Shown here: piece by piece, positions 33,811 to 64,000 of the stretch
How the letters are laid out: each line of letters begins with the position of its first letter
Position numbering within the stretch: position 1 is the first letter of the stretch
NCBI RefSeq assembly: GCF_030013595.1
Contig: NZ_CP122768.1
Strand: one strand, 5' to 3'
DNA: 64,000 bases
Source: Escherichia coli
GTDB taxonomy: Bacteria > Pseudomonadota > Gammaproteobacteria > Enterobacterales > Enterobacteriaceae
Made by a program: the position numbers and the translations under genes
Notes under the pieces: model-generated
Database searches by the model: none
Seen by the model: the letters and a program-made list of their open reading frames with translations, nothing else
What the model was told of the DNA's origin: nothing

Positions 33811-34788
33811 TTAAGCACCTCCTAGTGGATTAAACCTCACCGCATCCTGCAGGTAATCCGGCGCAAGATGGGCATAAATCATCGTTGTCTGAATCTTTGC
33901 GTGCCCCAGAATTTTCTGGAGCGTCAGAATATTGCCGCCGTTCATCATGAAATGACTGGCGAAGGTATGGCGCAGCGCATGAACAGCCTGGCCGTCAGGA
34001 ACATCAGGTGCGACCGTTTTGATGACATCGCGAACCAATGGATAATCCAGCGTCGGAAACACCAGTTTCCCGCCCCGTATTTTGATCTTTTCAAACAGGC
34101 TTTCAGAAATAGGAACGGTACGGTTTTTGCTGTTCTTCGTTTTTGAAAAAGTGATTCGACAATGAAGAACACGGCGCTGCTCTAGTGCCGCTACCTCGCC
34201 CCATCGCGCCCCGGTCGACAGAAGGATTTCGACAGCCAGCCGTTCATCGGGATTTTCAGCCAGTGCATCCAGCAACTGAACACATTCAGACTTACTCAGA
34301 TATCCCATTTCGCGCTCGTTAACCTTCATTCCTTTAAGGCCTTGAACGGGGTTATCGTTAAGAAAATGGCCGGATGAGATGAGTGCGGTAAACATCGCGC
34401 TTAACGCCCCAATCTCTCGATTTATGGTGCTGGGCTGTATCCCCTGCTCTATCCTGGACACACGTAGCTCGGTGAGCATCGTTGTATTAAGTTTATGCAC
34501 GCACGGGTCATCCATTGCCTCACTCAAGCGCAGCAATTTAAGGCGCGTGTTATGCCCTGACTTCATTAGCTGGCCGTGGTATTTCCACCACAAGTCAATA
34601 AGCACTGACAGCGGGCGGCGATCAATGGAGTTTCCTTTCCACTCATTGTTATGCTGTTGCGCCAGCACCCACCGCTCATATAAAACTGCATCCGATTTCG
34701 TTTTAAATTTTTTGCGAATGCGTTTGCCTTTACGCCCCTCAGGACGCATGTCAAGAAGATACCCTCCCGGAATTGATTTTATGCTCAT
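33811..34788 (-). CDS. int: tyrosine integrase, P2 Int family
   Basis: Starts MSIKSIPGGYLLDMRPEGRKGKRIRKKFKTKSDAV (compare P2 Int MAIKKLDDGRYEVDIRPTGRNGKRIRRKF); catalytic ...HALRHTFASH... and ...TTMIYAHL... motifs. Confidence 0.9.
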   Translation of the reverse strand: MSIKSIPGGYLLDMRPEGRKGKRIRKKFKTKSDAVLYERWVLAQQHNNEWKGNSIDRRPLSVLIDLWWKYHGQLMKSGHNTRLKLLRLSEAMDDPCVHKLNTTMLTELRVSRIEQGIQPSTINREIGALSAMFTALISSGHFLNDNPVQGLKGMKVNEREMGYLSKSECVQLLDALAENPDERLAVEILLSTGARWGEVAALEQRRVLHCRITFSKTKNSKNRTVPISESLFEKIKIRGGKLVFPTLDYPLVRDVIKTVAPDVPDGQAVHALRHTFASHFMMNGGNILTLQKILGHAKIQTTMIYAHLAPDYLQDAVRFNPLGGA

Positions 34789-34837
34789 TCGTGAAGCCCC
34801 AGCGTTACAAGACCACCATGCCCCCAGCGTTCCATGA

Positions 34838-35149
34838 TTAGCCGGGCTGTGTGCCAGTCTTGCGGGATTTTTGAGAAGACGATGTGTTTTCTGGCCCATC
34901 AGGGGAGAGAGAAGGACTGATCTGCCCAGCAGCCTCATTTGTTTCGTTACTCATCAACCACGTAGTGTATTTTTTAAATTCCGGGTGCATTGTGATTTTC
35001 AGTAAAACCTCCGTTCCCACACCTCGAATACCAGTCTCGTATTGCTTAACCGTACCAACCGCAATACCTATTGAATCCGCGAACTTTGCCTGACTAAGCC
35101 CCTCAGATTCTCGAATTGCTTTTAGCTTCTTTGATATCTCTATTGACAT
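34838..35149 (-). CDS. C: immunity repressor C (P2 C family HTH)
   Basis: 103-aa ORF MSIEISKKLKAIRESEGLSQAKFADSIGIAVGTVKQYETG...HPEFKKYTTWLMSNE...GQISPSL, resembles P2 C; directly upstream of int on the same strand. Confidence 0.75.
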   Translation of the reverse strand: MSIEISKKLKAIRESEGLSQAKFADSIGIAVGTVKQYETGIRGVGTEVLLKITMHPEFKKYTTWLMSNETNEAAGQISPSLSPDGPENTSSSQKSRKTGTQPG

Positions 35150-40482: not shown

Positions 40483-41442
40483 ATGAAAATTTGTATCGAC
40501 GACGGCTCCACCAACATCAAGCTGGCATGGACTGAGAACGGCGAACGCCGCAACGCCATCAGCCCGAACAGCTTCAAGTCGGAATGGTCTGCGCCGTTCG
40601 GCGGCACGCAGCCCGCGAACTACATGCTTGATGGCGTGCGCTATGGTTTTGATCCGGTCAGCGATCGCTTTGTCCAGACGACCGACACGCAATACCAGTA
40701 CAGCGATGTAAATGTCATTGCCATTCATCACGCGCTGGTCAAATCAGGCATCACGCCACAGGAGGTGGATGTGGTTGTCACCCTGCCACTGAGCGAGTAT
40801 TTCGACACAAACGCACAGCCGGACATGGCCAACATCAACCGCAAAAAAGCGAACGTTATGCGCCCGGTGGAGTACCAGAACGGCGAAGCATTCACTATCC
40901 GTAACGTGCGGGTTATGCCTGAATCCATTCCGGCTGGCTTTAAAGCACTGGCTGACATGAGTCCGTTTGAATCCCTGCTGATTGTGGATTTAGGTGGAAC
41001 CACGCTGGATGTGGCAAAGGTTCAGGGACAACTGGCAGGTATCAGCCAGGTGTTTTGCGATCCACACGTAGGCGTTTCCCTGATGGCCGATGCAGTACTG
41101 TCGGTGATGGCCACTAACGGTATGCGTACCAGTCACCACATCGCCAATACCATTATCGAACATCGCCATGATGAAGCCTGGCTGCGCCAGCACATCCACA
41201 ATGACGCGCATTACGCCAGCCTGATGGCGGTTATTCGTGAAAAGGAAGAAACACTGAAACAACGCGTGATCCGCGCGCTGGCGGGTTTTTCGGGTTACGG
41301 GCGGGTGATGGTTGTCGGTGGCGGGGCGGAGATTGTGGCACCCGCTATCCGCGAAGCCTGCGGAGTTAATGCGACTTTCATCGCGGACGGGGTGCCACAG
41401 TTTGCTCTGGTTAATGGGCTGTACGCAATGGACAAGGAGTAA
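40483..41442 (+). CDS. parM: ParM/StbA-family actin-like ATPase
   Basis: 319-aa ORF MKICIDDGSTNIKLAW...NSFKSEW...YSDVNVIAIHHAL...VMPESIPAG...IVDLGGTTLD...VVGGGAE...LVNG, alignable throughout with R1/R100 ParM/StbA. Confidence 0.85.
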   Translation: MKICIDDGSTNIKLAWTENGERRNAISPNSFKSEWSAPFGGTQPANYMLDGVRYGFDPVSDRFVQTTDTQYQYSDVNVIAIHHALVKSGITPQEVDVVVTLPLSEYFDTNAQPDMANINRKKANVMRPVEYQNGEAFTIRNVRVMPESIPAGFKALADMSPFESLLIVDLGGTTLDVAKVQGQLAGISQVFCDPHVGVSLMADAVLSVMATNGMRTSHHIANTIIEHRHDEAWLRQHIHNDAHYASLMAVIREKEETLKQRVIRALAGFSGYGRVMVVGGGAEIVAPAIREACGVNATFIADGVPQFALVNGLYAMDKE

Positions 41443-42526: not shown

Positions 42527-42529
42527 CAA

Positions 42530-45778: not shown

Positions 45779-45932
45779 TGCTCCCCCTGAGTAATTACAG
45801 GAAGATTACCCGCGCGCGAAACCGTTCTCCTTAACCCCCTGTTCTGGCCGTTTTCTTACAACAAAAGCCCTTTGTATCAGCCTGTTACGCTTTGCCATCA
45901 TGACTGAAGAACCAGTCAGAGGGGCAAAAACT
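45779..45932. promoter_or_regulatory. divergent late promoter region between P and O
   Basis: 154-bp interval between divergent P and O starts, the position of the P2 late promoters; activator boxes not resolved by eye. Confidence 0.45.
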
Positions 45933-49487: not shown

Positions 49488-49489
49488 CA

Positions 49490-51211: not shown

Positions 51212-51839
51212 GGCATTCACCCGCGTGGATGAAACCTTTGAGGCCATCCGCGACAGCCTGAATCAGCAGGCCATCAATAACATCGCCAGAAAGCTGGCAC
51301 AGGATTTACGCCGCGCCCAGCAGGCGCGTATCCGGTCACAGAAAGCGCCGGACGGGACCGCGTGGACACCACGCAGACGCCGCGTAACCCGGATACAGGA
51401 GCGCATTCGCTTTATCTGGAATAACGAAGCACGCACGCTGAAAAACTGGCATCACGACACGGGGAAATACGGGCGAACCATTACCGGGTGGGATGAGGAT
51501 AAAAACAATATCCGCACGTTTTACCGGGATGACATCGACCGTTTTCTGGAAATACGCACCCGGCGCATCAACCAGGACAGCACAAAGCGCGTCCCCATGT
51601 TCGTAAAACTGCGCACCGCCCGCTACCTGAAAGCCCGTGCAGATGCTTCCGGTGTGACGGTGGGTTACAGCGGCGTGGCCGCACGTATTGCCCGCGTTCA
51701 TCAGTTCGGTGAGCGCGATCAGGTTGCGCCGGGCATTTTCACCGATTACCCGGTACGTGAGCTGCTGGGTATCAGCCAGGCAGATGAGCGCCTGATTTAT
51801 AACACGGTGCTGGGCCGGATTGCGGAGGCTGTACGGTGA
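51195..51839 (+). CDS. S: tail completion/virion morphogenesis protein, P2 gpS-like
   Basis: 214-aa ORF between R and V; longer than P2 S, assignment by position. Confidence 0.7.
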   Translation: MKAMDKAFTRVDETFEAIRDSLNQQAINNIARKLAQDLRRAQQARIRSQKAPDGTAWTPRRRRVTRIQERIRFIWNNEARTLKNWHHDTGKYGRTITGWDEDKNNIRTFYRDDIDRFLEIRTRRINQDSTKRVPMFVKLRTARYLKARADASGVTVGYSGVAARIARVHQFGERDQVAPGIFTDYPVRELLGISQADERLIYNTVLGRIAEAVR

Positions 51840-52417
51840 GCGCAGAACTCATGCGACTGCTGAGCAATATCATCCGCACCGGGATCATCTCTGAAGTTGA
51901 TGAGAAGTCCTGGCGCGTGCGCGTTCGCAGCGGCGAACTGGAAACAGGCTGGTTGCGCTGGAACACCACGCGCGCGGGAGCCTTCAATGTATGGCTGCCG
52001 CCATCACCAGGCGAACAGGTGGTAATTGCCTGCATTGGCGGCAACCCGGAAACCGCCATGATAATTGGCAGCCTGTGGAGTGATGCCAGTCCGGCCCCCG
52101 GCAAAAGCCTGAAAGAAATCGTGGTCAGCGCGCCGGATGGCGCGGCGTTCCGCTACGACGCAGACGCTGGCGCACTGAGCGCCAGCGGCATGAAAACAGC
52201 CACCCTGCAGGCATCCGTCAGCGTGACACTGGATACGCCCGTCGTGGAATGCACAAACCTTCTGAGAACAGCGACGCTTGACGTCACAAAAGGGGGAAAG
52301 ATGAGCGGCAATATCACGCACAGCGGCGGCGATTTCACCTCAAACGGCATCACAGTGCATACGCATAAGCACGGTGGCGTTAAAGGTGGCAGCGATTCGA
52401 CAGGAGGCCCGCAGTGA
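51836..52417 (+). CDS. V: baseplate spike protein, P2 gpV family
   Basis: 193-aa ORF with OB-fold-like N-terminus and Gly-rich C-terminal tip region. Confidence 0.88.
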   Translation: MSAELMRLLSNIIRTGIISEVDEKSWRVRVRSGELETGWLRWNTTRAGAFNVWLPPSPGEQVVIACIGGNPETAMIIGSLWSDASPAPGKSLKEIVVSAPDGAAFRYDADAGALSASGMKTATLQASVSVTLDTPVVECTNLLRTATLDVTKGGKMSGNITHSGGDFTSNGITVHTHKHGGVKGGSDSTGGPQ

Positions 52418-52764
52418 CAACCCGCTACACAGGAATGAACCCGGACGGAACGGGAAACCTGAACGATATGGAGCACCTGAAACAGTCAGTCAGGGACATC
52501 CTGACCACCCCGCTGGCCAGCCGGGTTATGCGACGGGAATATGGCAGCCTTGTGCCTGATTTGATTGACGAACCCATGAATAACACCACGCGTCTGCAAT
52601 GCATGAGTGCTGCCGTGATTGCGCTGACACGATGGGAACCCCGCATTGCCCTGGACGCTATCGACGTTGTCTGGAAGGCAGGAGGCCGCGCCGGGGTGAC
52701 GCTGTCGGGCACTGTCATGCAGACCATGCAGAATGTTGAATTAACCATCACGCTGAGGGAGTAA
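52414..52764 (+). CDS. W: baseplate wedge protein, P2 gpW family
   Basis: 116-aa ORF, GPW/gp25 lysozyme-like fold pattern; ATGA overlap with V. Confidence 0.88.
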   Translation: MTTRYTGMNPDGTGNLNDMEHLKQSVRDILTTPLASRVMRREYGSLVPDLIDEPMNNTTRLQCMSAAVIALTRWEPRIALDAIDVVWKAGGRAGVTLSGTVMQTMQNVELTITLRE

Positions 52765-52767
52765 ATC

Positions 52768-53664
52768 ATGCCTGCCGTTGACCTTTCACAGTTACCGGAC
52801 CCCGCCATCATCGCGGAGCCTGACTTTGAGGCAATTCTGGCTGACACAAAGGCCATGATGATTGCGTCCTATCCCGCCGAACAGCGTGAAGCCGTTTCCG
52901 CCGCGCTGGAGCTGGAATCGGAACCCCTTAACGTTATCGCTCAAACCATGTCGTTTCGTGAAATGCTGTTACGCCAGCGGGTCAATGAGGGTGCACGCGC
53001 CTGCATGCTAAGCCACAGCGCCGGGACAGACCTGGACAACCTCGCGGGCAATATGAACACAAAGCGCCTGGTTATCACTCCGGCAACGGATACCACCGAC
53101 GCAGTGATGGAAAGTGACACCTCGCTGAGACTACGGGCGCAACGGGCATATGACGGTCTGAGTGTTGCTGGCCCGTCAGGTGCATACGAGTATTTTGCAC
53201 GCAGCGCCAGCGGTCTGGTACGCGATGCGCGGGCCATCAGCCCGTCTCCGGCCAACGTGACGGTTTCCATCCTGTCCACTGAGGGCGACGGCACAGCAAC
53301 GGAGGCATTGCTTAATACCGTTCGCGCCGTTCTGAATGCAGAGGATACCCGCCCGGTGGCCGACCGCCTGACCGTACAGAGTGCCAGAATCGTGACATGG
53401 CGGCTGAATGCAAAACTGTACTTTTACCCCGGCCCGGAATCCGAACCTATTCTGGCCGCGGCGGAATCGTCGTTCAGGAAGTGGCTGTCTGAGCAGGGGC
53501 TTATCGGTCAGGATGTGGCGTTGTCAGCCATTGCTGCCGCACTGCATGTGCACGGTGTGCAACGCGTGGAGATAATCGAACCCACACAAAATATGGCCAT
53601 CAGCGACATACAGGCGGCGCGCTGTGAGTCATTCACCATCAGCGAAGGTGGGCGTAATGAGTAA
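52768..53664 (+). CDS. J: baseplate protein, P2 gpJ family
   Basis: 298-aa ORF at the P2 J position. Confidence 0.9.
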   Translation: MPAVDLSQLPDPAIIAEPDFEAILADTKAMMIASYPAEQREAVSAALELESEPLNVIAQTMSFREMLLRQRVNEGARACMLSHSAGTDLDNLAGNMNTKRLVITPATDTTDAVMESDTSLRLRAQRAYDGLSVAGPSGAYEYFARSASGLVRDARAISPSPANVTVSILSTEGDGTATEALLNTVRAVLNAEDTRPVADRLTVQSARIVTWRLNAKLYFYPGPESEPILAAAESSFRKWLSEQGLIGQDVALSAIAAALHVHGVQRVEIIEPTQNMAISDIQAARCESFTISEGGRNE

Positions 53665-54187
53665 TTCACTGTTACCGCCATCAGCCAGCAATTTCATGCG
53701 TTGTGCCGAAGCTGTCGGAACGCGCATTACAGACATTCCGGTAGACCTCAACACGCTGTGGTCGCCGGACACCTGCCCGGTGCATCTGCTGCCTTATCTC
53801 GCCTGGGCATTTTCCGTTGACCGCTGGGATCGCAACTGGCCGGAAGAGACAAAGCGACAGGTGATTCGTGATGCATGGCTGATACACCGACACAAAGGGA
53901 CCATCAGCGCACTGCGCCGGGCCATTGAGCCGCTGGGATACCTCATTCGTGTGTCTGAGTGGTGGGAGTTCGGCGGAGAACCGGGAACATTTACCGTTGA
54001 AGTCGGCACGCTGGACAGTGGCGTGACGGAGGAAATGTATCTGGAAATGGAGCGGTTGATTGCTGATGCCCGCCCGGTCAGCCGCCACATGACAGGGCTG
54101 AATATCATTCAGGAGATCCCGGGGGATATTTTCGCGGCGGCAGCAACTTACGACGGTGAAGTCATTACCATTTATCCGGACGATTAA
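53657..54187 (+). CDS. I: baseplate/tail protein, P2 gpI family
   Basis: Start MSNSLLPPSASNF... aligns with the P2 I N-terminus; ...CPVHLLPYLAWAFSVDRWD...ADARPVSRHM...NIIQEIPGDIFAA... conserved. Confidence 0.85.
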   Translation: MSNSLLPPSASNFMRCAEAVGTRITDIPVDLNTLWSPDTCPVHLLPYLAWAFSVDRWDRNWPEETKRQVIRDAWLIHRHKGTISALRRAIEPLGYLIRVSEWWEFGGEPGTFTVEVGTLDSGVTEEMYLEMERLIADARPVSRHMTGLNIIQEIPGDIFAAAATYDGEVITIYPDD

Positions 54188-54189
54188 GC

Positions 54190-56781
54190 ATGAGTACCAC
54201 AACACGAAAATTTAAAACCATTATCACTGATACTGGTGCCAAAAAATTAGCTCAGGCAGCCGCGCCAGATGGTAATCCTGTCCGCCTGACTCACATGGCC
54301 GTGGGCGACGGTGGCGGCACGTTGCCCACACCAGACAGTAAGCAGACCCGTCTGGTGCATGAGGTGTGGCGACATACTGTTAATCGCGTCATCCTGGACG
54401 CAACACATCAGAACCGCATTATTGCGGAGCTGGTTATTCCTCCTGAAACGGGCGGATTCTGGATCCGGGAAATTGGTGTATTTGATGAGCACGGCGATTT
54501 GATCGCGGTGGGCAATACTGCGGAAAGTTACAAGCCAGCCGTTGCCGAAGGATCCGGACGTGTACAAACATTTCGCACCATTCTGACCGTATCCAGCACT
54601 GCCACCGTGGCGCTTACCGTGGATAACACCATGGTTATGGCCACAGTGGATTACGTGAATGACAAACTGAAAGAACATGAACAGTCACGACGTCACCCGG
54701 ACGCCTCGCTGACCGCAAAAGGCTTTGTTCAACTCAGTAGCGCCACCAACAGCACGTCTGAAACACTGGCCGCAACGCCGAAAGCGGTAAAGGCCGCGTA
54801 TGACCTTGCTAACGGGAAATATACCGCACAGGACGCCACCATAGCGCGAAAAGGCCTTGTCCAGCTCAGTAGTGCCACCAACAGCACGTCTGAAACGCTC
54901 GCCGCAACGCCGAAAGCGGTAAAGGCAGCATATGACCTTGCTAACGGGAAATACACTGCACAGGACGCCACCACAACGCGAAAAGGCCTTGTTCAGCTCA
55001 GTAGCGCCACCAACAGTGATTCTGAAACGCTTGCGGCAACGCCAAAGGCGGTAAAGGCAGCATATGACCTTGCTAACGGGAAATACACTGCACAGGACGC
55101 CACCACAGCGCGAAAAGGTCTTGTCCAGCTCAGTAGCGCCACCAACAGCACGTCTGAAGCATTGGCCGCAACACCGAAAGCGGTAAAGGCCGCGTATGAC
55201 CTTGCTAACGGGAAATACACTGCACAGGACGCCACCACAGCGCGAAAAGGTCTTGTCCAGCTCAGTAGCGTCACCAACAGCGATTCTGAAACGCTTGCGG
55301 CAACGCCAAAGGCGGTAAAGGCCGCGTATAACCTTGCTAACGGGAAATACACTGCACAGGATGCCACTACAGCGCGAAAAGGTCTTGTCCAGCTCAGTAG
55401 CGTCACCAACAGTGATTCTGAAACGCTGGCCGCAACATCAAAAGCGGTGAAGTCTGCCTATGACAATGCTGAAAAACGCCTTCAGAAAGATCAGAACGGT
55501 GCGGATATTCCGGGAAAGGATACCTTCACGAAAAATATCGGTGCCTGTCGTGCTTATAGCGGCGCTTTGAGCACTGAAGCCGGAAACTGGACAACCGCTC
55601 AGTTTATTGAATGGCTGGATTCCCGTGGTGCATTTAATCATCCGTACTGGATGTGCAAAGGCTCATGGTCATATGCAAATAACAAAATCATTACGGATAC
55701 CGGATGTGGTGATATCCACCTGGCTGGTTGTGTCGTCGAGGTCATGGGAACTAAATCTGCAATCACTATCCGAGTAACCACGCCGACAACATCAAGTGGT
55801 GGCGGTACAACCAGCGCACAATTCACTTACATTAATCATGGGGGCGGCTACTTCCCCGGCTGGCGTCGTGACTGGAATCGTCAGGGCGACTCAATGACCG
55901 GAACGATTAATCAGGATGGCGGAAGCCAGAATGCCTATATGTCTACGGCCTTATGTTCAGGCACCAGAGGCGGCAAAAAATATCTCAGAAAGTTTCGTGG
56001 TGGAGAAGGAGATACTATCTGGCATGAAACAGTACAGGGCGGGGTAATTCGCTGGGCGACAGGAAACTATGACGCTCAGGAAGAATTATCACTCAGCTCC
56101 GCTTATGGTCTCCGTTCAAGAGGTGAGATTACATCACTCAGTGCTAATGGTCTGCGCATTGCTTATGGCAATTATGGATTCTTTATCAGGAATGATGGCG
56201 GCAGCACATATTTAATGCTGACGGCCTCTGGCGATAAATTTGGGACATGGAACGGCTTAAGACCGCTGACTATCAATAACGCCAATGGCGGAGTGTCAAT
56301 GGGGCATGGCCTGAGTGTTACAGGTGATATTGTCTCAAGTACCAAAGTACGTGCCGGTAGCGGGAAAAAGTTCACGGTCAGCAGCAGCAATACATCCACG
56401 AAGGAAGCCGCATTCAATTTGTGGGGAAACGCAAGTCGTCCGGTGGTGGCTGAATTAGGTGATGATGCAGGCTGGCATTTTTACAGTCAGAGAAATACAG
56501 ATAACAGCATCACTTTTGCTGTTAACGGGCAGGTATCACCATCTAACTATGGCAACTTTGATTCACGCTATGTCCGGGATATTAGACTTGGTGGCGCGTC
56601 ATCCTATAAACCAGCAAATAACGGGACAACATGGACGCATCAGGCTCCATCTGGTTGCGCATATACCGGGATTATCGTTCAGGATACAGGCTCAAACTCT
56701 GCCGATAATATTGGTGGTGTTTATTACAGACCAATTCAAAAAAATATTAATGGTACATGGTATAACGTATCGAGTGTTTGA
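54190..56781 (+). CDS. H: tail fibre protein, P2 gpH-like, with internal tandem repeats
   Basis: 863-aa ORF; N-terminal 170 aa like P2 H; five and a half tandem copies of a 44-aa unit; Gly-rich distal domain. Confidence 0.9.
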   Translation: MSTTTRKFKTIITDTGAKKLAQAAAPDGNPVRLTHMAVGDGGGTLPTPDSKQTRLVHEVWRHTVNRVILDATHQNRIIAELVIPPETGGFWIREIGVFDEHGDLIAVGNTAESYKPAVAEGSGRVQTFRTILTVSSTATVALTVDNTMVMATVDYVNDKLKEHEQSRRHPDASLTAKGFVQLSSATNSTSETLAATPKAVKAAYDLANGKYTAQDATIARKGLVQLSSATNSTSETLAATPKAVKAAYDLANGKYTAQDATTTRKGLVQLSSATNSDSETLAATPKAVKAAYDLANGKYTAQDATTARKGLVQLSSATNSTSEALAATPKAVKAAYDLANGKYTAQDATTARKGLVQLSSVTNSDSETLAATPKAVKAAYNLANGKYTAQDATTARKGLVQLSSVTNSDSETLAATSKAVKSAYDNAEKRLQKDQNGADIPGKDTFTKNIGACRAYSGALSTEAGNWTTAQFIEWLDSRGAFNHPYWMCKGSWSYANNKIITDTGCGDIHLAGCVVEVMGTKSAITIRVTTPTTSSGGGTTSAQFTYINHGGGYFPGWRRDWNRQGDSMTGTINQDGGSQNAYMSTALCSGTRGGKKYLRKFRGGEGDTIWHETVQGGVIRWATGNYDAQEELSLSSAYGLRSRGEITSLSANGLRIAYGNYGFFIRNDGGSTYLMLTASGDKFGTWNGLRPLTINNANGGVSMGHGLSVTGDIVSSTKVRAGSGKKFTVSSSNTSTKEAAFNLWGNASRPVVAELGDDAGWHFYSQRNTDNSITFAVNGQVSPSNYGNFDSRYVRDIRLGGASSYKPANNGTTWTHQAPSGCAYTGIIVQDTGSNSADNIGGVYYRPIQKNINGTWYNVSSV
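54718..55455 (+). repeat. tandem array of a 132-bp (44-codon) unit inside tail fibre gene H
   Basis: Protein repeats KGLVQLSSATNSTSETLAATPKAVKAAYDLANGKYTAQDATTAR x5 plus a diverged partial sixth; nucleotide copies over 90 percent identical. Confidence 0.85.
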
Positions 56782-57317
56782 TTATGATGCATTTAAAAAA
56801 TATAAAACCGGGCAATCCAAAAACAAAAGAACAGTACCTGTTAACTAAAAACTCCGGCGTTGTCTGGTTATTCGCTGAAGATGGTAAAAACTGGTATGAG
56901 GAACAAAAGAACTTTCAGCCAGACACCATAAAGATTGCATATGATGAAAATAATGTCATATGCGACGTGCAAACGGATGTAACTGCAATTTGCCCGGAAG
57001 GAAAAAGTGTTGTCGAGTTGCCTAATATTACAGCAAACCGACGCGCTGATATTTCAGGTAACTGGATGTTTAAAGATGGCTCAGTCATTAAACGTGTGTA
57101 TACCGAAGAAGAGCAACGCTTGCAGGCTGAAAACCAGAAACAAAGGTTATTACAGCAGGCCAGAGAAAAAACGCAGTTCTGGCAGACCCAGCTTGCATTA
57201 GGGATTATCAGTGATTCAGATAAGCAACAACTGATGCGCTGGATGCGGTACGTGCAACAAGTTGAGACCACTGATACCACTGAATTACCCGTTACGTTCC
57301 CTGATCAACCAGAATAA
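56778..57317 (+). CDS. G: tail fibre assembly protein, P2 gpG-like
   Basis: 179-aa ORF overlapping the H stop; C-terminal ...QQLMRWMRYVQQVETTDTTELPVTFPDQP tail fibre chaperone pattern. Confidence 0.85.
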   Translation: MIMMHLKNIKPGNPKTKEQYLLTKNSGVVWLFAEDGKNWYEEQKNFQPDTIKIAYDENNVICDVQTDVTAICPEGKSVVELPNITANRRADISGNWMFKDGSVIKRVYTEEEQRLQAENQKQRLLQQAREKTQFWQTQLALGIISDSDKQQLMRWMRYVQQVETTDTTELPVTFPDQPE

Positions 57318-57320
57318 ACG

Positions 57321-57345
57321 AAAGGCCCGAATATCGGGCCTTATC
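57321..57345. terminator. bidirectional terminator hairpin between convergent G and U
   Basis: AAAGGCCCGA-ATAT-CGGGCCTT with an A-rich 5' flank and T-rich 3' flank. Confidence 0.6.
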
Positions 57346-57385
57346 GTTATTTCTGTTTATCTAACTATTTGTGATTTGCGTTAAA

Positions 57386-57880
57386 TCAGAACAGTCCCTT
57401 AACAGAACTGACCGCACTGTTAAGGGATGACGCCACCTTATCTTTGAAGCCGGACAGCATATCGCTGAACGATGAGGATTGCAGGCGCTCCCGCAAATCC
57501 TCATCACAGCGTTCAAGGGTCAGTGAAAATTCTATCTTTTTCGCCTTACCGTAGCGATCAAACTCGGAACGGGTCGTATTCGTTTCAGTCAGCACATACA
57601 TGCCGTAAATCTGCCCGACACCATCAATCAGAGGCCAGGGGCGTCCTGTATATGCCTGCGTGGTCAGCAACGAAAGCGACACTTCGCCACCTGTAATTTC
57701 AGGATAAAGCACGCCGGAAAGCACAATGCGATCATCACCTGCACCTATATACTGCCAGCTTGCTGAACGGTTAACGCGTTCATTTTTTACATGCCGCCAG
57801 CTTTTGTTTTGCTGTAACTGCTGATGCGGCAGTGTGCGCAGCTCAAAAACAAACATGCCGTAGATCATCATCATGGCCAT
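57386..57880 (-). CDS. U: tail protein, P2 gpU family
   Basis: ...MFVFELRTLPHQQLQQNKSWRHVKNERVNR...WPLIDGVGQIYGMYV... aligns with P2 U (MMVLGLFVFQLRTVPYQQLQQ...). Confidence 0.85.
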   Translation of the reverse strand: MAMMMIYGMFVFELRTLPHQQLQQNKSWRHVKNERVNRSASWQYIGAGDDRIVLSGVLYPEITGGEVSLSLLTTQAYTGRPWPLIDGVGQIYGMYVLTETNTTRSEFDRYGKAKKIEFSLTLERCDEDLRERLQSSSFSDMLSGFKDKVASSLNSAVSSVKGLF

Positions 57881-57886
57881 GACTCC

Positions 57887-60703
57887 TCAATCTTTATCGT
57901 AAAAACTGCCACGTCCGGCACGGGCGCGCCGTTCCATCTCTGCCCTGACCATTTCACCGACCAGTTTCGCCAGTTCGCGGGGATTCTGCGTAACAACGTT
58001 ATGCAGATGAACATGAATTTCACCGCCAAACCCGGAGGCAACAGGCTCCCGGTTACGGAAAGTTGCAGGAACTGATGCCACTGGAGAGCGTATGGCCTCC
58101 GCCACCGGGCGGGAGCTGGCCGCAACAACAGGGACCAGCGCCGGAGGCAGCGGAGCCGGGACCACGGGTGTGATATTAATTGCGGGGGCAGGCTTACTGA
58201 CCTGCGCAATCTTCCGCTCCTGCCACTCCCCACGAACAGCAAGTGCGCGGGGCAGGTTCTTAAAGACAATATCGCCGGGGCCAATGCGTTTTTTCGTCTC
58301 ATCAACCAGCTTACCTGTGTTATCAGCAATTTTGCTGAGTCTGCGTAGCGTACCGGTATTGCTGTCTGTGAGCGGTTTGTTGTCTTTGGGCTTATCACCT
58401 CCGGTGCCATTGCCATTTTCCACAGGCTTCGGCGGATTGATTTTCGCCAGGTCCCCCTGAAGCAAGGCAACCTTGTCCTGAAGAATGGCCGCACGCTGTG
58501 CGTCTTCGATTTTCTTGCGCGCCCTTTCCGCTTCATCCGGAAGCACACCGAGCTTTTCAAGTATCCACGCCAGCGTATCCAGCAACATTTTTGCAGGTGT
58601 CAGAACAAGTTGTAACGCACCGCCAAGAACGTTACCGAATATCTCGCCAGCACTGGTACATTTATCCAGCGTTTCCTTGCTGGACTCCATCGGTGACAGC
58701 AGCGATTTAAACCAGTTAAACACCTGGCTGATCCCGCTTCCGATTGCGTCAAAAACAGGACCAAACCGTTCAAAGGTTTCGCGCAACGGGGTCAGCCTTT
58801 CCATAATCCCGCTGAACACTCCGGCAAAAAATGCCCTGATGGGATCCCAGTATTTCCAGATAAGAACGGCAGCTCCGGCAAGCGCAGCCACAATAAGACC
58901 AACCGGACTGAACAACGCCCCGATAGCGCCTCCCAGTAAAGAAACAGAACCCGTCACCATTCCCCACAGCGCAGGCAACACCCTGACGACATTCATTGAC
59001 CGGGTCAGGATGTCAAAACCAAGACGCAGGGTGGCCAGCTTCCCGTAAAGCACCCCAATAACCAGCGACAACGAGCCAATCGTTGCAGTCATTGCCAGCA
59101 ACGCACCGCCTGCTATCAGTAGCTGGCGCGTCAGTACCGGATGGGCCTGCGCCAGCGAGGTGATTTTTTCAAGCACCCGCGTGAACCACTGCGTGACAAA
59201 ACGCAGCGGACCGTCAACCAGATCACTGATGCGAATACGAAGACCTTCCCATGCGCTGTCGAGATTTTTCAGGTCCCCATCAAGATTATCGGCCATTACT
59301 TTTGCAACGCGATCGGCCTCTCCCCTTGCCCCCTGCAATTCTCTGGTCAGTTTTTGCAGCTCTCCTGAACCAGCCGCCGCAACAAGCGTCTGCAAACCAA
59401 CGAACGCCTCTTCTCCGGCGATGTCCTTGAAGAAGGAGACCTGGTCCACCTGTCCGTATTTTTGTGTCGCCTTATAGAGATCAAGCAGCACATCCTCCAT
59501 CGGGCGCATTTTGCCTCTGGCGTCAGCAACTGACACCCCAAGCTCTTTCAGCGCATCAGCCGCAGCTTTTGGCGGTGATGCAAGGCGGGACAGACTTGCG
59601 CGCATGGCCGTACCAGCATCGCTTCCACGAAGACCATTATTGGCAAGCATCCCGGCCATGGCTGCCGCTTCTTCAAGACTGATACCAAGTTTTGCGGCAA
59701 CCGGACCGGTATACTTCATGGTTTCGCCCAGCGCGCGTAAATCAGTATTGGTCCGGGTGAATGCCGCTGTCAGCGTATCGCCAACCCGGTCCATTTGATC
59801 GGCTGTCAGGTTGAACTGTGTGAGGATATTGGAGCCTATATCAGCCGTCTCGCCGAGTTCGACGCCACCTGCCAGCGCCATATTAAGAACACCGGGCAAT
59901 GCGGCCTGAATGGCCTGCGGAGTAAAACCAGCCATTGCCAGAAAGCTCTGCCCACTGGCGGCATCACTCGCAGTAAACTGTGTTTCAGAGCCAAGTTTTA
60001 ACGCCTGCTCACGCAGCGCCTTAAACTGCGGGCTGTTTTTGTCGATTCGCGTCAGTGCCTGAACGCGGGACATCTCTTTGCCGAACCCGATCGCAGGCTG
60101 CAAAAAACGCCCGGCAGCATAGCCGCCCGCCGCTGCCGCACCAATTGCCAGCGCACCACCTGTTTTCAGTTTTCCCGCTGTTTCCTGCGCGCGCGAATAC
60201 CGCTCACGCGCCCGCGTTACACGCGCAAGCGCCTGCCGTTCGCGTTCAAGCTGGTTGTTGTACTGTTCGGTGCGTCTGATGGCCTGCTGGATGGTGTTAT
60301 CGCTGCCTGTCAGGGAAATGCCGTGGCGTTTCAGCTCTCCGCCAAGCTCCCGCATTTTCTGAATTTCCCGTGTGCGCGATTCATTCAGGCGTTCAAGCCG
60401 GGTGCTTAACTGCTGCATCAGCTTTTGTTGTTTTTCGCTGAGCACTGTACCCGTGCGTTGTAACTGATTAAGGGCGTTAAGCTGGCGTCGTGCTTTCAAT
60501 ATGCCAGCATCCGCTTTACTGACAGCGTCACGGGCGCGCTCAAATGAACGCGCCTGACGCTCGAGATTTTTGATCGCCCCCTGCGTTCGCTGGATGGAGT
60601 CACCAAGCTGCCCCATCAGGCGGCGGGCGTTTTCGGCAGGCCGGGTCAACCTGTCAACGGCGCTGAAAGCGACCCGGATATCAAGAGTCTTCATTATCTG
60701 CAT
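57887..60703 (-). CDS. T: tail tape measure protein, P2 gpT family
   Basis: 938-aa largely alpha-helical ORF with central hydrophobic segments. Confidence 0.9.
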   Translation of the reverse strand: MQIMKTLDIRVAFSAVDRLTRPAENARRLMGQLGDSIQRTQGAIKNLERQARSFERARDAVSKADAGILKARRQLNALNQLQRTGTVLSEKQQKLMQQLSTRLERLNESRTREIQKMRELGGELKRHGISLTGSDNTIQQAIRRTEQYNNQLERERQALARVTRARERYSRAQETAGKLKTGGALAIGAAAAGGYAAGRFLQPAIGFGKEMSRVQALTRIDKNSPQFKALREQALKLGSETQFTASDAASGQSFLAMAGFTPQAIQAALPGVLNMALAGGVELGETADIGSNILTQFNLTADQMDRVGDTLTAAFTRTNTDLRALGETMKYTGPVAAKLGISLEEAAAMAGMLANNGLRGSDAGTAMRASLSRLASPPKAAADALKELGVSVADARGKMRPMEDVLLDLYKATQKYGQVDQVSFFKDIAGEEAFVGLQTLVAAAGSGELQKLTRELQGARGEADRVAKVMADNLDGDLKNLDSAWEGLRIRISDLVDGPLRFVTQWFTRVLEKITSLAQAHPVLTRQLLIAGGALLAMTATIGSLSLVIGVLYGKLATLRLGFDILTRSMNVVRVLPALWGMVTGSVSLLGGAIGALFSPVGLIVAALAGAAVLIWKYWDPIRAFFAGVFSGIMERLTPLRETFERFGPVFDAIGSGISQVFNWFKSLLSPMESSKETLDKCTSAGEIFGNVLGGALQLVLTPAKMLLDTLAWILEKLGVLPDEAERARKKIEDAQRAAILQDKVALLQGDLAKINPPKPVENGNGTGGDKPKDNKPLTDSNTGTLRRLSKIADNTGKLVDETKKRIGPGDIVFKNLPRALAVRGEWQERKIAQVSKPAPAINITPVVPAPLPPALVPVVAASSRPVAEAIRSPVASVPATFRNREPVASGFGGEIHVHLHNVVTQNPRELAKLVGEMVRAEMERRARAGRGSFYDKD

Positions 60704-61219
60704 TCCCGCTGCGAAGTGCCGCCCGCTCGCGCCAGCTAACCACTTCGCCGGGCGTCATCATGAAGATTTCGGCGGGCGACCAGTTAAAAATGGCGGCAAT
60801 ATCCGCCACCAGATCTTCGATGTGCTCAAAGCACACCAGGGTGATTACGCTGCCGTCTCCTGCACGCTCTTCGCGCCAGAGTCTGGCTCGCTCATAAAAT
60901 TTACAGCCACAGCGCACAACTGAATAAAATCGCGTGACGACATTTTTTTAATCATCACTTCATCCAGTCGTGGCGAGGTCACGCGAGGCAACAGCGTGAA
61001 CATGGTATCCGCTTTCAGATTCAGCACATCAGACAGCGACAGACCACGCAGGGATCCAGCCTGCTCAATAGCCCCGGTGATCTCCACATACGTGATTTTT
61101 TCGCCACCACGCTCAATTGGTCGGGTCAGTTTTACGCCACGTTCGACAGCCATATCCTCACCTGCCGTCACATCATCCGCCACGGTGTTATTCCGGGTTT
61201 CAGTATCGATGTCTTTCAT
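60681..61219 (-). CDS. E+E' tail chaperone fusion by programmed -1 frameshift (putative)
   Basis: 78-codon ORF 60681..60917 lies in the -1 frame overlapping the E 3' end and the T start, the conserved P2 E/E' arrangement. Confidence 0.55.
60845..61219 (-). CDS. E: tail assembly chaperone, P2 gpE-like (start uncertain)
   Basis: 124-aa ORF between FII and T. Confidence 0.7.
   Translation of the reverse strand: MKDIDTETRNNTVADDVTAGEDMAVERGVKLTRPIERGGEKITYVEITGAIEQAGSLRGLSLSDVLNLKADTMFTLLPRVTSPRLDEVMIKKMSSRDFIQLCAVAVNFMSEPDSGAKSVQETAA
60943..60949 (-). other. candidate slippery A7 run for the E/E' frameshift
   Basis: Plus-strand TTTTTTT at 60943..60949 (minus-strand AAAAAAA read as ATT AAA AAA ATG); the only homopolymer between the -1-frame stop at 60948..60950 and the E stop. 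Confidence 0.45.
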
Positions 61220-61274
61220 CAGTTGTCTCCTTTTCAGTCAGAGGCGACGCACTGCGCCGCCTGCATATTATTTA

Positions 61275-61787
61275 TCAGCCAAGCCCAAGCGCGGAACGGA
61301 TACGGTCAGGCACAATGTCCTTGCCGTCCTTCCGGTAGATGTGGTTCAACAGGTCGATTTCCCACAGCGGGCGATCGTTAACGCTCAGCTTGTAGTAGGT
61401 GTTTTTGACAGCGTAAGTGTGTGATGTGGCTTCGCCCTGTTTGGCTTCCCCCATATCAATTTCCGTCACACGCCCGCGCATCTCGATTTCATACAGATCA
61501 CTTTCTGCATCGGTGTAGTATTCACCCGCAAAACGCAGCAGCGTGCCGTCAATCGTGCCGCCATATTTAAGGAACAGCGCACGAACAGCTCCCCCCATAA
61601 CAAAACTCGCATCAAGCGCGGAGTCGTCCAGACCGAGATCAATACTTACCGCCCCCATCATGCCACCACCACGATAGCTGTCGGTTTTGCGCGTCAGTTT
61701 GGGCGGCGTGACGGATGTCACTTTACCCACTTCGTTTTCACCATCCACAAACAACGTAAAAAAGCGAAGATGTTTTGGTACAGCCAT
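61275..61787 (-). CDS. FII: tail tube protein, P2 gpFII family
   Basis: 170-aa ORF immediately after the sheath gene. Confidence 0.88.
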   Translation of the reverse strand: MAVPKHLRFFTLFVDGENEVGKVTSVTPPKLTRKTDSYRGGGMMGAVSIDLGLDDSALDASFVMGGAVRALFLKYGGTIDGTLLRFAGEYYTDAESDLYEIEMRGRVTEIDMGEAKQGEATSHTYAVKNTYYKLSVNDRPLWEIDLLNHIYRKDGKDIVPDRIRSALGLG

Positions 61788-62971
61788 CAGACACCTCCCA
61801 GCACCGCAAATGCGGGACCAAAGAATTCATCAGTAAACGTCTGGTAAAGCTCCATGTCTTCCAGTGGCGGAACGGGCGTATATTTGTAGCGAATACGCAC
61901 ACGTCCCTGACGTAAATCCGTGGTGCCGTTATCCACCACGTCATACCAGCACTCCGCACCAATCAGTTTCCCGGCAGTAACCAGCGAATCCAGTTTTGCT
62001 CTGATGGCACTGATAACATCCTTCACGTTCGCAGGCGTCAGTGGACTGTCGATGGTTTCAAACTGCGCTTCCGCAATTGAATCAGCCAGCACCTGTGCGG
62101 TTCGGGTATACACCTCAAAGATGTAGGCGTTCGTTTCCGGTGTGCGGTTGCCCCAGAAGCGGAACCCGTTGCGACGAATAATGGTCGTGATTTCTTTGTT
62201 GTTGAGGCTGTTGGCATCACTGTCTTCAGCCTGCAACGACCAGAACACATGCCTCGACATCCCCAGCACATTTTTAACCGGAACGTTGGACAGCGATTTG
62301 TGCCAGCCCTGCTCATGGTCAATGTACGCACGAAGGCCGCACGCATAGGCAGGCGCGGGGAACGTTTCGTTTTCGCCACTTTTCGGGTTGTAGGCGATGA
62401 AGTCCGGCCACAAGAGCATCACCTCACGTTCGTTGAATTTCTGGCGGTAGGTAATCGCTTCAGCCATCGTGTTACAGCCGTGACATGCGGCATACACAAA
62501 CGCGCGCAGTTTACCCGCAATCACGCACAGGGATTTTGTCACCGCCTCCGTGTCCAGCTCCGGCGCGGCCAGAATACGCGGACGGTATCCGATGCTTTCA
62601 TCCTGCTCTGCAACAAGCAGCGCATACATCCCCGTATAGCTGCCGTCATCCTCAGAACCACCGATAACCAGTTGATCCTGCGTCTTACCGTCTTCTTCTT
62701 TGTGTTCAGCCACGCGAACGACGATCACCTTTGTGCTCACCTGGTCTGCGATGGCCTTAAGCGCACGATAAAGCGTCCCCGTTGTTCCGCATTTTCCCAG
62801 CACGTCATTGACGCGGGTCAGCAGTGTGGGCTTGTTCAGCGGGAACAGCTTCGCGTCCGCATCATCCGCCGTTGCCACGATACCGATAACGCTGGAATCA
62901 ACATCGTTAATCGCTGTTACCAGGTCGGTATTTTCCGTAACACGGGCACCATGAAAACGAGTTTCACTCAT
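61787..62971 (-). CDS. FI: contractile tail sheath protein, P2 gpFI family
   Basis: 394-aa ORF; ...FPLNKPTLLT...KLRAFVYAA...WPDF...GWHKSLSNV...RRNGFRFWGNRT...YTPVPPLE... align with P2 FI. Confidence 0.92.
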   Translation of the reverse strand: MSETRFHGARVTENTDLVTAINDVDSSVIGIVATADDADAKLFPLNKPTLLTRVNDVLGKCGTTGTLYRALKAIADQVSTKVIVVRVAEHKEEDGKTQDQLVIGGSEDDGSYTGMYALLVAEQDESIGYRPRILAAPELDTEAVTKSLCVIAGKLRAFVYAACHGCNTMAEAITYRQKFNEREVMLLWPDFIAYNPKSGENETFPAPAYACGLRAYIDHEQGWHKSLSNVPVKNVLGMSRHVFWSLQAEDSDANSLNNKEITTIIRRNGFRFWGNRTPETNAYIFEVYTRTAQVLADSIAEAQFETIDSPLTPANVKDVISAIRAKLDSLVTAGKLIGAECWYDVVDNGTTDLRQGRVRIRYKYTPVPPLEDMELYQTFTDEFFGPAFAVLGGV

Positions 62972-63128
62972 AGCTTCAGCCCCTTGTATCCGTTAAATGA
63001 TTCGGCAACAATCATCACCCACCACGCGCGTAATCTCACCCCTGCGCCGTTCTCCCGACCCAGCGACAACAAAAAGCAGTAACCCCCTCCGCACGCACAT
63101 GCGACCATGCCGCACAGGGAGGGAACAG
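62972..63128. promoter_or_regulatory. divergent promoter region between sheath gene FI and D
   Basis: 157-bp interval between divergent FI and D starts; must carry promoters for both. Confidence 0.4.
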
Positions 63129-64000
63129 ATGACCGACACCACCATGCAATTGCTCAGTCAGGGCACAGACCCCGTGAAAATGCCGGATTTTGATATTCTT
63201 GCGGAGGGTAAAACGCTGTCAGGCGTGGCAGAGCGCCTGATGAGCCTGTCACTGACCGACAACCGGGGATTTGAGGCGGACCAGCTCACCATCACGCTGG
63301 ATGATGCGGATGGTCAGTTGCAGCTACCGCCACGGGGCGCGCGCCTGACGGTTCTCATTGGCTGGAAAGGAGAACCGCTGACAGAAAAAGGCACTTACAT
63401 TGTTGATGAAATCGCTCACGAAGGACCGCCGGACAGGCTGACAGTTTCAGCCAGAAGCGCAGATTTTCGGGATGAATTTAACGTTAAACGTGAGGTGTCC
63501 TGGCATGATGTGACCGTTGAGCGTGTGGTATCCGCCATCGCTCATCGGTATGGTCTGAAATCGCAAATCAGCGAAATGCTGATGGATATTGAAATCGACC
63601 ACGCCGACCAGACCGAAGAAAGCGACATGTCCTTCCTTACGCGCATGGCGGAAATGCTGGGCGCAATCACTACGGTAAAAAGCGGTAATCTGTTATTCAT
63701 TATGCCAGGCGGTGGCGTGAACGCGCAGGGCCAGCCGTTGCCCTCGTTCGCCATCACACGCAGCAGCGGCGATCGCCATCAGTTCCGCATTGCTGACCGA
63801 GAGGCGTATACGGGGGTACGCGCTTACTGGCTTGATCTTAATTACGGGAAAAAGAAAAAAGTCAGCGTGAAACGCCGTAAACCGCCAAAACCCAAAAAGG
63901 AGAAAAGCAGCAGCCGTGAAGGTGATTATATGGAAGGCGCGGAAGGCAATGTGTTTGTGTTACGCAAGACTTATCAGAACGAGCAGGCAGCAAGACGCGC
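63129..64000 (+). CDS. D: tail protein D (P2 gpD family), 5' 290 codons; runs off window end
   Basis: ATG 63129 after GGGAGGG; open to the end of the window; starts MTDTTMQLLSQGTDPVKMPDFDILAEGKTLSGVAERLMSLSLTDNRGFEADQLTITLDD, the gpD/late-control D pattern. Confidence 0.85.
   Translation, partial: MTDTTMQLLSQGTDPVKMPDFDILAEGKTLSGVAERLMSLSLTDNRGFEADQLTITLDDADGQLQLPPRGARLTVLIGWKGEPLTEKGTYIVDEIAHEGPPDRLTVSARSADFRDEFNVKREVSWHDVTVERVVSAIAHRYGLKSQISEMLMDIEIDHADQTEESDMSFLTRMAEMLGAITTVKSGNLLFIMPGGGVNAQGQPLPSFAITRSSGDRHQFRIADREAYTGVRAYWLDLNYGKKKKVSVKRRKPPKPKKEKSSSREGDYMEGAEGNVFVLRKTYQNEQAARR

Follow-up and report, generated by a model that had tools for sequence, protein, structure and literature searches.

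The prophage tail block in which FI, FII, E, T and U run against their neighbours is, in our reading, the standard layout of the phage P88 lineage. It would derive from one old inversion of the FI-to-U block, the junctions of which have since been made functional, and we put the probability of this at roughly 0.8. The layout itself is already known: it is on record in the annotated genomes of characterised phages, deposited for KSP20 in 2009 and for P88 in 2014, then for SEN4, 3LV2017 and ΦSM. The P88, ΦSM and SEN4 papers do not discuss the orientation, and we found no explicit description of the inversion in the literature searched. The initial annotation had singled out the block as an inversion relative to phage P2. 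That the FI-to-U block is flipped stands, but it is not a noteworthy local event, since the layout is normal in functional relatives: P88, ΦSM and SEN4 all have the same orientation as their ordinary arrangement, an outcome that the initial annotation had itself named as refuting.

The window (the whole stretch of 64,000 nucleotides of Escherichia coli DNA that was analysed) contains a prophage with 93-97% nucleotide identity to phage P88. Positions 33000-57400 match P88 at 97.5% identity over 81% of their length (24.4 kb), and positions 56500-64000 at 93.1% over 88%. Thirteen phage records, P88 and ΦSM among them, are colinear with it at 91-96% nucleotide identity. The ICTV genus criterion is about 70% nucleotide identity over the genome length, and the part of the prophage inside the window, whose right end lies beyond it, has the identity expected of a Xuanwuvirus. 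The annotations of NC_026014 and OR565851 give the same late-gene layout, with H and G pointing right, U, T, E, FII and FI pointing left towards them, and D pointing right again. Judged by this nucleotide identity and gene layout, the prophage is a P88-like Xuanwuvirus of the family Peduoviridae.

The open reading frame map places the late genes R, S, V, W, J, I, H and G on the plus strand, and U, T, E'/E, FII and FI on the minus strand at 57386..62971. D starts at 63129 on the plus strand, divergent from FI and separated from it by 157 bp, so the geometry of the initial annotation is confirmed. The gpG-like tail fibre assembly gene G (56778..57317, plus strand, an open reading frame with 58.5% amino acid identity to P2 G) is the final gene of a long plus-strand late operon (O ... 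R S V W J I H G). The block and its flanking late genes are all P2 homologues, with 33-46% amino acid identity from FI to U. On the minus strand, in order of coordinate, are U, a gpU homologue and tail protein (57386..57880; 46% identity to P2 U, phrog_76 E = 2.6e-74); T, a gpT homologue and tape measure of 938 aa (57887..60703; 33% to P2 T over 732 aa, TIGR01760 E = 4.9e-85); the E' frame (60681..60917, an open reading frame); E, the gpE tail assembly chaperone (60845..61219; 35% to P2 E, phrog_103 E = 1e-36); FII, a gpFII homologue and tail tube (61275..61787; 42% to P2 FII, TIGR01611 above the curated cut-off); and FI, a gpFI homologue and tail sheath (61787..62971; 45% to P2 FI over 383 aa, phrog_23 E = 2.8e-124), which has 98.5% amino acid identity to P88 FI. 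The 5' part of D, a gpD homologue (baseplate hub, late control D), occupies 63129..64000 on the plus strand (46% to P2 D, phrog_52 E = 4e-123). D has 99.7% amino acid identity to D of Xuanwuvirus P884B11, and the gene continues past the window end.

NCBIfam by itself named only T, FII and I, and the remaining genes were assigned from PHROGs and from direct blastp against the P2 proteins; PHROG and NCBIfam assignments are concordant. The blastp E values against P2 tail proteins range from 1e-15 to 1e-122, and the same comparison gives 59% identity for G, 73% for the N-terminal part of H, 46% for V and 44% for W. We thus find the contractile tail module of the Peduoviridae, with homologues of FI, FII, E, T, U and D and the internal order kept. 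The tail reading frames are all intact, with lengths that agree with P88. Reading sequence and frames, we also find a -1 slippery heptamer A_AAT_TTT in the E gene at 60902->60896, after which the -1 frame continues as far as 60681, running into T, which starts at 60703. The gpE and gpE+E' pair spanning 60681..61219 is a predicted product of this frameshift, and the P2 record annotates an E/E+E' -1 frameshift likewise.

The P2 record gives the order H G fun(Z) FI FII E E' T U D ogr, in agreement with the initial annotation for the late genes. There fun(Z) lies on the opposite strand from H, G and the genes from FI to ogr, and U and D share a single base. Compared with P2, the flip is limited to the FI-to-U block, and H-G and D(-ogr) keep their orientation. 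The canonical P2 F operon, in which FI to D are co-directional with H-G, form one unit from pF and have overlapping U stop and D start, is absent from the prophage. D is uncoupled from the sheath operon, as had been proposed. The Z/fun hotspot was also correctly described as empty, the 68-bp G/U spacer (57318..57385) having no accessory gene.

The layout is widespread and occurs in one orientation only. It is colinear in 1352 of 5426 complete E. coli genomes, about a quarter (counted as colinear matches covering at least 80%), and no second orientation is seen among these 1352 genomes and the 13 phage genomes. The best E. coli match is at about 95%, and the flanking DNA has a GC content of 52-61%. 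It also occurs in the Peduoviridae genera Novemvirus, Reipivirus, Reginaelenavirus and Senquatrovirus and in Serratia phage KSP20; by annotation the carriers are SEN4, Klebsiella 3LV2017, Enterobacter phiT5282H, Klebsiella ST16-OXA48phi5.4 and Serratia KSP20. In all 47 of the 47 records with at least 55% FI identity, D is on the opposite strand, 150-220 bp off. The P2 order is kept by the nearest outgroups, Firavirus vB_YenM_42.18 and Erwinia ENT90 (50% FI identity), and by the nine phages further off for which FI and D matches are both listed. Over the same phage set FI and D fall in like identity tiers: clade members have 55-75%, and phages outside the clade do not exceed 53%. From this outgroup distribution and these tiers, the best reading is that the P2 order would be ancestral and the inverted order derived. 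A single inversion, taking in the FI-to-U block and its late promoter pF, would have occurred in the ancestor from which one enterobacterial clade of P2 relatives descends (Xuanwuvirus, Novemvirus, Reipivirus, Reginaelenavirus, Senquatrovirus and Serratia KSP20), and functional phages would have inherited it since.

Three other origins have to be set against one old inversion. The layout contrasts with the P2 reference order and the window is a single unverified sequence, so one may ask whether the inversion is recent and specific to this prophage, or a contig mis-assembly, in which case D would be stranded and tail assembly perhaps crippled. We give this a negligible probability, as both junctions are identical in 13 independently sequenced phages and in 1352 complete E. 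coli genomes, which also disposes of the assembly error that the initial annotation had allowed for. The tail reading frames are intact and of P88 length, the E/E' frameshift site is preserved, and P88, ΦSM and SEN4 make infectious particles: P88 is plaque-forming and has a contractile tail, its burst size being about 65 (PMC5285337), ΦSM shows spontaneous release and lysogenisation (PMC6456863), and electron microscopy of SEN4 shows a contractile tail (PMC5261728). The short inverted repeats that the initial annotation had suggested looking for at the two breakpoints did not turn up: in an inverted-repeat search of 56700-63400 none joins the two junctions, and the sole repeat at the G/U junction is a terminator hairpin. 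Replacement of the sheath-to-U module by a homologous module of another myovirus, inserted in the opposite orientation, is improbable. P2-like genomes are mosaic, the H C-terminus and G are themselves swapped here relative to P88, and relatives have a variable hotspot at the G/U junction; but the FI-to-U divergence from P2 (33-46% identity) is similar to that of the flanking D, V and W, which fits co-divergence rather than import. The shared tiers of FI and D over the same phages also speak against import, as does the lack of any closer FI in phage groups outside the clade.

A third possibility is that FI-to-U is, or once was, a site-specific invertible segment flipped by a Gin/Cin-type invertase such as P88 has beside U. 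In P88 and ΦSM a DNA invertase gene does lie between U and the tail-fibre segment, and an invertase is found at the corresponding G/FI position of ENT90, a phage with the P2 order. We nevertheless hold this to be very unlikely: no invertase is encoded in the window, 57318-57385 and 62972-63128 share no inverted repeats, the orientation is single in more than 1300 genomes, and SEN4, 3LV2017 and phiT5282H have the layout with no annotated invertase at the G/U junction. The same repeat search in P88 returns only the repeats of the tail-fibre invertible segment; these invertase repeats (L001 5234-5298 and 8274-8338) flank the fibre segment only, and none pairs with the FI/D spacer. An invertase-mediated origin was dropped, as there are no breakpoint repeats and the block lacks the features of a Gin/Cin/Hin-type segment.

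Under the single old inversion, each junction has its own candidate function. In the convergent G/U spacer, a scan positive on both strands identifies a predicted bidirectional intrinsic terminator at 57322..57342. Its stem AAGGCCCGA/TCGGGCCTT has 9 bp, including 6 GC pairs, and T-rich tails follow on both strands, giving the GC-rich hairpin with T-run that is typical of a putative rho-independent terminator in either direction. RNA folds of the 71-nt stretch 57300-57370 have -27.5 and -28.6 kcal/mol (z = -6.6 and -6.4). Such a terminator would end both transcripts, and in relatives the junction doubles as an accessory-gene hotspot. An Rfam scan of 50000-64000 reports only a sub-threshold sRNA-like match, located on this hairpin.

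The divergent FI/D control region (62972..63128) contains blocks conserved across six lineages. Among them, motif and alignment identify a predicted Ogr/Delta-type late-activator dyad, GTTCT-N12-ACAACAAAA, at 63049..63074, with its core TCT-N12-ACA at 63051..63068 and its centre at 63059.5. The relaxed and extended motif was derived by alignment with other genera after a search for exact TGT-N12-ACA, which has three matches in the window, fewer than expected by chance and none in the late control regions. The window and P88 have TCT as left half-site, one mismatch from the canonical TGT of a TGT-N12-ACA site centred at about -55 with no good -35 box, and the window dyad aligns with a perfect TGT-N12-ACA in 3LV2017, KSP20 and SEN4. 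About 0.1-0.2 copies of T[GC]T-N12-ACA are expected by chance in 157 bp, so that a single copy is not rare; the case for the dyad is made by its conservation, the extended motif and the geometry, not by the occurrence of one short motif. Without mismatch, GTTCT-N12-ACAACAAAA has exactly two copies in the 64-kb window, the other being in the divergent terminase(P)/scaffold(O) region at 45841..45866, which we use as the prophage's own reference for this type of late promoter. With two mismatches allowed there is one more site, at 22393, and shuffles average 0.54 matches. Each genome that we checked has one dyad site per region. The dyad and its flanking -10-like blocks are conserved across the six lineages, in regions that otherwise average 53% identity.

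On the FI side, the predicted late promoter has a -10 box GATGAT (63011..63016, minus strand; inferred start about 63004), and the corresponding block in the six lineages is GATGAT, GAATAT, GATTAT or AATGAT. On the D side, the predicted -10 box of a separate late promoter is GACCAT (63103..63108, plus strand; inferred start about 63115). It is preceded by a conserved CGCGCGCG-like block, CGC.CGC.CATG..AAyCAT being conserved across lineages, and followed by a Shine-Dalgarno GGGAGGG and then the ATG at 63129. On all four sides, FI/D and P/O, the distance from the dyad centre to the end of the predicted -10 box is 48.5 nt, compared with 48-50 nt between site and box end for the mapped P2 promoters pP, pO and pF. 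The P2 record has one activator site common to pP and pO. In P88, SEN4, phiT5282H and ST16-OXA48phi5.4 the gene immediately after D is an ogr homologue, the window ending before that position; in P88 it is an unannotated reading frame (L001 15888-16148, phrog_603 E = 4e-15).

The initial annotation had predicted that D needs its own promoter, and the conserved promoter-like architecture backs this. The most likely reading of these motifs and spacings is that D is transcribed from a late promoter of its own and that this promoter shares its activator site with FI. The FI/D junction would then hold back-to-back activator-dependent late promoters around one shared Ogr/Delta-type dyad about 55 bp from each start, and D, followed by ogr in relatives, would form its own late transcription unit. 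Alternatively, D could be expressed from an ordinary activator-independent promoter, or be timed apart from the sheath genes, with the dyad serving the FI operon only. The D-side GACCAT is weak and itself a prediction, the FI-proximal dyad half-site is degenerate in Xuanwuvirus, and, by our own reasoning, few copies of D are needed per virion, making separate regulation conceivable. We regard this as rather unlikely, since the D-side block CGCGCGCG..AAyCAT keeps a fixed distance to the dyad in six lineages and has counterparts on both the O side and the P side of the P/O region, and the geometry equals that of the mapped bidirectional P2 pP/pO pair. A sigma-70 scan detects no consensus promoter in the FI/D spacer, a result that counts against an ordinary D promoter but is uninformative for activator-dependent promoters, though expected of them. 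For the shared site, we lean slightly towards a history in which the inversion brought pF and its symmetric Ogr-type site beside D, so that a single site now drives FI and D in a second, independently arisen design of the pP/pO type. As far as we have searched, this shared-site reading for the P88 clade has been neither pointed out nor tested in the literature.

As a layout, then, the inverted block is ordinary, inherited and very common in E. coli, and of little discovery value. Its use is elsewhere: with the sheath block inverted in a five-genus clade, the canonical P2 order is an unsafe template for judging whether a P2-like prophage is intact. The clade offers a comparative case of how late-promoter architecture adapts once an operon is split. 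If the shared-site reading is true, it is a natural example of a dyad-symmetric activator site that lets an operon split and invert with late control kept.

The closest known systems are P88 (NC_026014; Xuanwuvirus P88) and its group, ΦSM, P884B11, 500465-2, PhiR44_2 and Chuche, in which the R-to-D order and strands are identical to the window, at 91-97% nucleotide identity (FI 98.5%, D 96-99.7% amino acid identity). Their FI/D spacer is also 157 bp, with the same dyad and 93-96% identity. They differ at the G/U junction, where P88 and ΦSM have an invertible alternative tail-fibre segment and a DNA invertase and the window has only the 68-bp terminator spacer; in the H C-terminus/G cassette, which in the window differs from that of P88 and is similar to cassettes of Yersinia phage, Mu and P1; and at the integrase/immunity end, the P88 match beginning at window position 35575. 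The other clade members, Senquatrovirus SEN4/SEN5, Reginaelenavirus 3LV2017, Reipivirus ST16-OXA48phi5.4, Novemvirus phiT5282H and KSP20, share the convergent fibre/U and divergent FI/D junctions, the Ogr/Delta-type gene after D and the conserved dyad in the FI/D spacer. They differ in having FI at 55-75% amino acid identity, a perfect TGT-N12-ACA in three cases, and differing cargo at the G/U junction, such as a DUF262 gene pair in Reipivirus. With the P2 F operon (pF-FI-FII-E-E'-T-U-D, then ogr) the prophage has in common the gene set, the order inside the block, an E/E' -1 frameshift (predicted here) in which E' runs into T, an activator site (also predicted here) about 83-89 bp upstream of FI and, as seen in relatives because the window ends within D, ogr after D. 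Unlike in P2, FI-to-U is inverted relative to H-G and D, the U stop/D start overlap is lost, D would be a separate unit, and the position of the fun(Z) hotspot is now the convergent G/U junction. With P2 pP/pO, the control region shares divergent late operons about 155-173 bp apart, one dyad in the middle, -10 boxes (predicted here) about 48-49 nt from the dyad centre on each side and predicted starts about 111 bp apart. Unlike in P2, this design would appear a second time, at FI/D besides P/O, and the site sequence GTTCT-N12-ACAAC differs from the P2 sites.

The ORF map places a P2-type late region at 50-64 kb. R starts at 50744 on the plus strand and is followed by S, V, W, J and I, all on that strand, then by the tail-fibre gene H (54190..56781) and by G (56778..57317), also plus. 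U (57386..57880), T (57887..60703), E (60845..61219), the E' frame (which overlaps E and extends to 60681), FII (61275..61787) and FI (61787..62971) are all on the minus strand, and D is on the plus strand from 63129 to the window end. The G/U spacer has 68 bp and the FI/D spacer 157 bp. By direct blastp against the P2 reference proteins, identities are 45% (FI), 42% (FII), 35% (E), 33% (T), 46% (U) and 46% (D), consistent with the PHROG and NCBIfam profiles. The P2 record has the order H G fun(Z) FI FII E E' T U D ogr, with H, G and FI-to-ogr on one strand, fun(Z) on the opposite one, and a one-base overlap of U and D. The initial annotation, which described FI-FII-E-T-U as a block inverted relative to P2, was right about the block geometry and about the P2 order. 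The locus belongs to the P2-type tail module family and to the P88 group. The canonical P2 F-operon organisation is absent from it, as it is from every member of its clade.

All ORF lengths of the module equal those of their P88 counterparts, E' still overlaps T, the E/E' -1 slippery heptamer A_AAT_TTT is kept (60902->60896), and FI and D are each preceded by a Shine-Dalgarno sequence; nothing suggests decay of the tail module. H contains a tandem repeat of 5.7 copies (unit of 132 bp or 44 aa, 89% identity; 54717-55464), through which it reaches 863 aa vs 669 aa in P2, and by blastp it aligns well with P2 H only over the N-terminal ~250 aa. The cassette of the H C-terminus and G resembles Yersinia phages (79-91% nt), Mu, P1, P7 and RCS47; its difference from P88 is typical fibre-cassette swapping. 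Within the coding sequence of gpV, ARAGORN calls an antisense 90-nt tRNA-Leu(CAG) at 52123-52212 (-). Rfam reports no tRNA at 52123-52212 at E <= 1, and the call is probably a false positive. The integrase/immunity end is not P88-like: a 375-aa tyrosine recombinase is found at 33811..34938, the P88 match begins only at 35575, and GC is low (45-49%) at 32-37 kb. At the position matching 40483..41442, P88 is annotated with a ParM-type partition gene, unusual cargo for a P2-like phage that integrates.

Window positions 57375-64000 are colinear with 13 phage records from the genus Xuanwuvirus (P88 group) at 91-96% nucleotide identity, and positions 35575-55323 are 97.5% identical to P88. The annotated P88 and ΦSM genomes have exactly the arrangement of the window: H and G (+), U-T-E'-E-FII-FI (-) and D (+). 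Both are working phages. P88 is induced and plaque-forming, with a burst size of ~65 and a contractile tail of ~137-140 nm (PMC5285337), and ΦSM is released spontaneously and lysogenises E. coli (PMC6456863). A single colinear match over at least 80% of positions 56700-64000 is present in 1352 of the 5426 complete E. coli genomes, the best matches having 100% coverage. The FI-to-U block by itself makes up 76.5% of this query, and a match of that extent must therefore include one or both junctions in intact form. With the junctions recurring in phage records and in complete E. coli genomes, an assembly artefact, which the initial annotation had allowed for, or a private rearrangement is excluded. 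The idea of a noteworthy inversion at this particular locus also falls, since functional relatives have the same orientation as their normal layout. The arrangement is plainly already on record in the annotated P88, ΦSM and SEN4 genomes, and the KSP20 entry of 2009 likewise shows a gpFI-like ORF with one labelled gpD-like opposite it; within the literature searched, the P88, ΦSM and SEN4 papers make no comment on the orientation of the block. Product names in the ΦSM record (OR565851) are shifted, such that the sheath gene is called 'late control gene D protein' and D is called 'ogr', and in SEN4 the 'ogr' label is on a 39-aa antisense ORF, not on the 80-aa ORF. ΦSM virions were described with long non-contractile tails (Siphoviridae) (PMC6456863), which disagrees with the genome content: a P2-type sheath 98.7% identical to that of the window, a tube and baseplate genes.

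To survey the distribution of the arrangement, FI and D were each used as tblastn queries on all phage records. In 47/47 records with an FI identity of at least 55%, D lies on the strand opposite to FI and is separated from the FI start by 150-220 bp. The set consists of Xuanwuvirus, Novemvirus phiT5282H, Senquatrovirus SEN4 and SEN5, Serratia phage KSP20, Reipivirus ST16-OXA48phi5.4 with the Kp48xx-1 series, and Reginaelenavirus 3LV2017 with the Kp48xx-3 series; the convergent fibre/U and divergent FI/D junctions are confirmed in the annotated records of this clade. The nearest outgroups, Yersinia vB_YenM_42.18 (Firavirus) and Erwinia ENT90, with FI identity of 50%, keep the P2 order G-FI-FII-E-E'-T-U-D-ogr. 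The P2 order is also found in Cartapus, SEN8, Kp4849-2, pro483, the prophage record CP019275, Klebsiella ST437-OXA245phi4.1, Burkholderia AP3 and ST79, and Vibrio MAR, where distant relatives were scored only if both FI and D matches were listed. The other modules of P88 (int-C, cox-A, Q-P, O...G, D-ogr) are all in P2 orientation. The most economical reading is a single ancient FI-to-U inversion, fixed in the ancestor of the clade. A foreign module could instead have replaced the block, but by blastp FI-to-U is as diverged from P2 as the neighbouring D, V and W, which argues against replacement. A site-specific invertible segment was rejected as the identity of the locus. The initial annotation had suggested looking for short inverted repeats at the two breakpoints; an inverted-repeat search found none that connects them, either here or in P88, and the mechanism of the old inversion is therefore not recoverable.

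A GC-rich hairpin with a 9-bp stem (57322..57342) lies in the G/U spacer, with a T-rich tail on each strand, and a terminator scan calls it in both orientations; the 71-nt stretch 57300-57370 folds at ~-28 kcal/mol (z ~-6.5). The hairpin is best read as a predicted bidirectional terminator for the O-to-G and FI-to-U transcripts. A sub-threshold Rfam match (57312-57348) to the Salmonella sRNA STnc350, with 25.8 bits vs a gathering score of 60 and E = 0.36, most likely reflects only terminator shape. P88 and ΦSM carry at G/U an invertible alternative tail-fibre segment and a DNA invertase, both missing from the window (56500-57375 compared with P88 6272-8976), and Reipivirus has a DUF262 gene pair there (7809-9712 in ST16-OXA48phi5.4). 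Such cargo marks the junction as the counterpart, by position, of the P2 fun(Z) hotspot; it is empty here, as initially annotated, with no gene in the 68 bp. In E. coli HCP5S3_I2, D is closely followed by genes for an 'ATP-binding protein' and a hypothetical product (12708-15508). These two genes and the DUF262 pair look like defence-type accessory genes.

Because no co-directional gene lies upstream, D would need its own promoter, as proposed initially, and conserved promoter-like blocks support this. Aligned across six lineages, the FI/D spacer (mean identity 53%) has three conserved blocks: a central dyad, a minus-strand -10-like box (GATGAT, GAATAT, GATTAT or AATGAT) towards FI, and CGCGCGCG..AAyCAT towards D. 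In 3LV2017, KSP20 and SEN4 the dyad matches TGT-N12-ACA, the consensus of Ogr/Delta-dependent late promoters, perfectly; Xuanwuvirus, Novemvirus and Reipivirus have T/G-TCT-N12-ACAACAAAA instead. In its extended form, the motif GTTCT-N12-ACAACAAAA appears twice in the window with zero mismatches, at 63049..63074 (FI/D) and 45841..45866 (P/O); allowing up to two mismatches adds one site, at 22393, and shuffles average 0.54 matches. Each genome checked has one dyad site, of the same polarity, in each of the two divergent late regions, and the FI/D and P/O regions are alignable to each other. In the window, the distance from the dyad centre to the end of the -10-like box is 48.5 nt on three sides (FI, D and P) and 46.5-49.5 nt for the candidate box on the O side (GCCAT/CATCAT). 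The mechanical ORF of O, the scaffold/protease gene, starts at 45900, and the ATG at 45934 is favoured because of the P88 annotation, a GAGGGG Shine-Dalgarno and the promoter geometry (the predicted O transcript start would otherwise be inside the ORF). An Ogr homologue directly follows D in SEN4, phiT5282H, ST16-OXA48phi5.4 and P88, whose RefSeq entry (NC_026014) leaves this 86-aa ORF (15888-16148) unannotated; the window ends before the equivalent position.

Given the sequence conservation and geometry, the best account is that one predicted activator site serves both FI and D, with the degenerate TCT half-site as a caveat. The inversion would have brought pF, the P2 promoter of the FI operon, up to D together with its symmetric activator site, and the relocated site would now serve both directions, as at the divergent P2 late promoters pP/pO. 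This predicted second bidirectional late promoter is what stays mildly interesting. In P2, which has mapped starts and one annotated activator site common to pP and pO, the spacing from -10 box to activator site is 48-50 nt by the same measure, and the pP and pO starts are separated by 111 bp; the predicted starts in the window, at ~63004 and ~63115, are likewise 111 bp apart.
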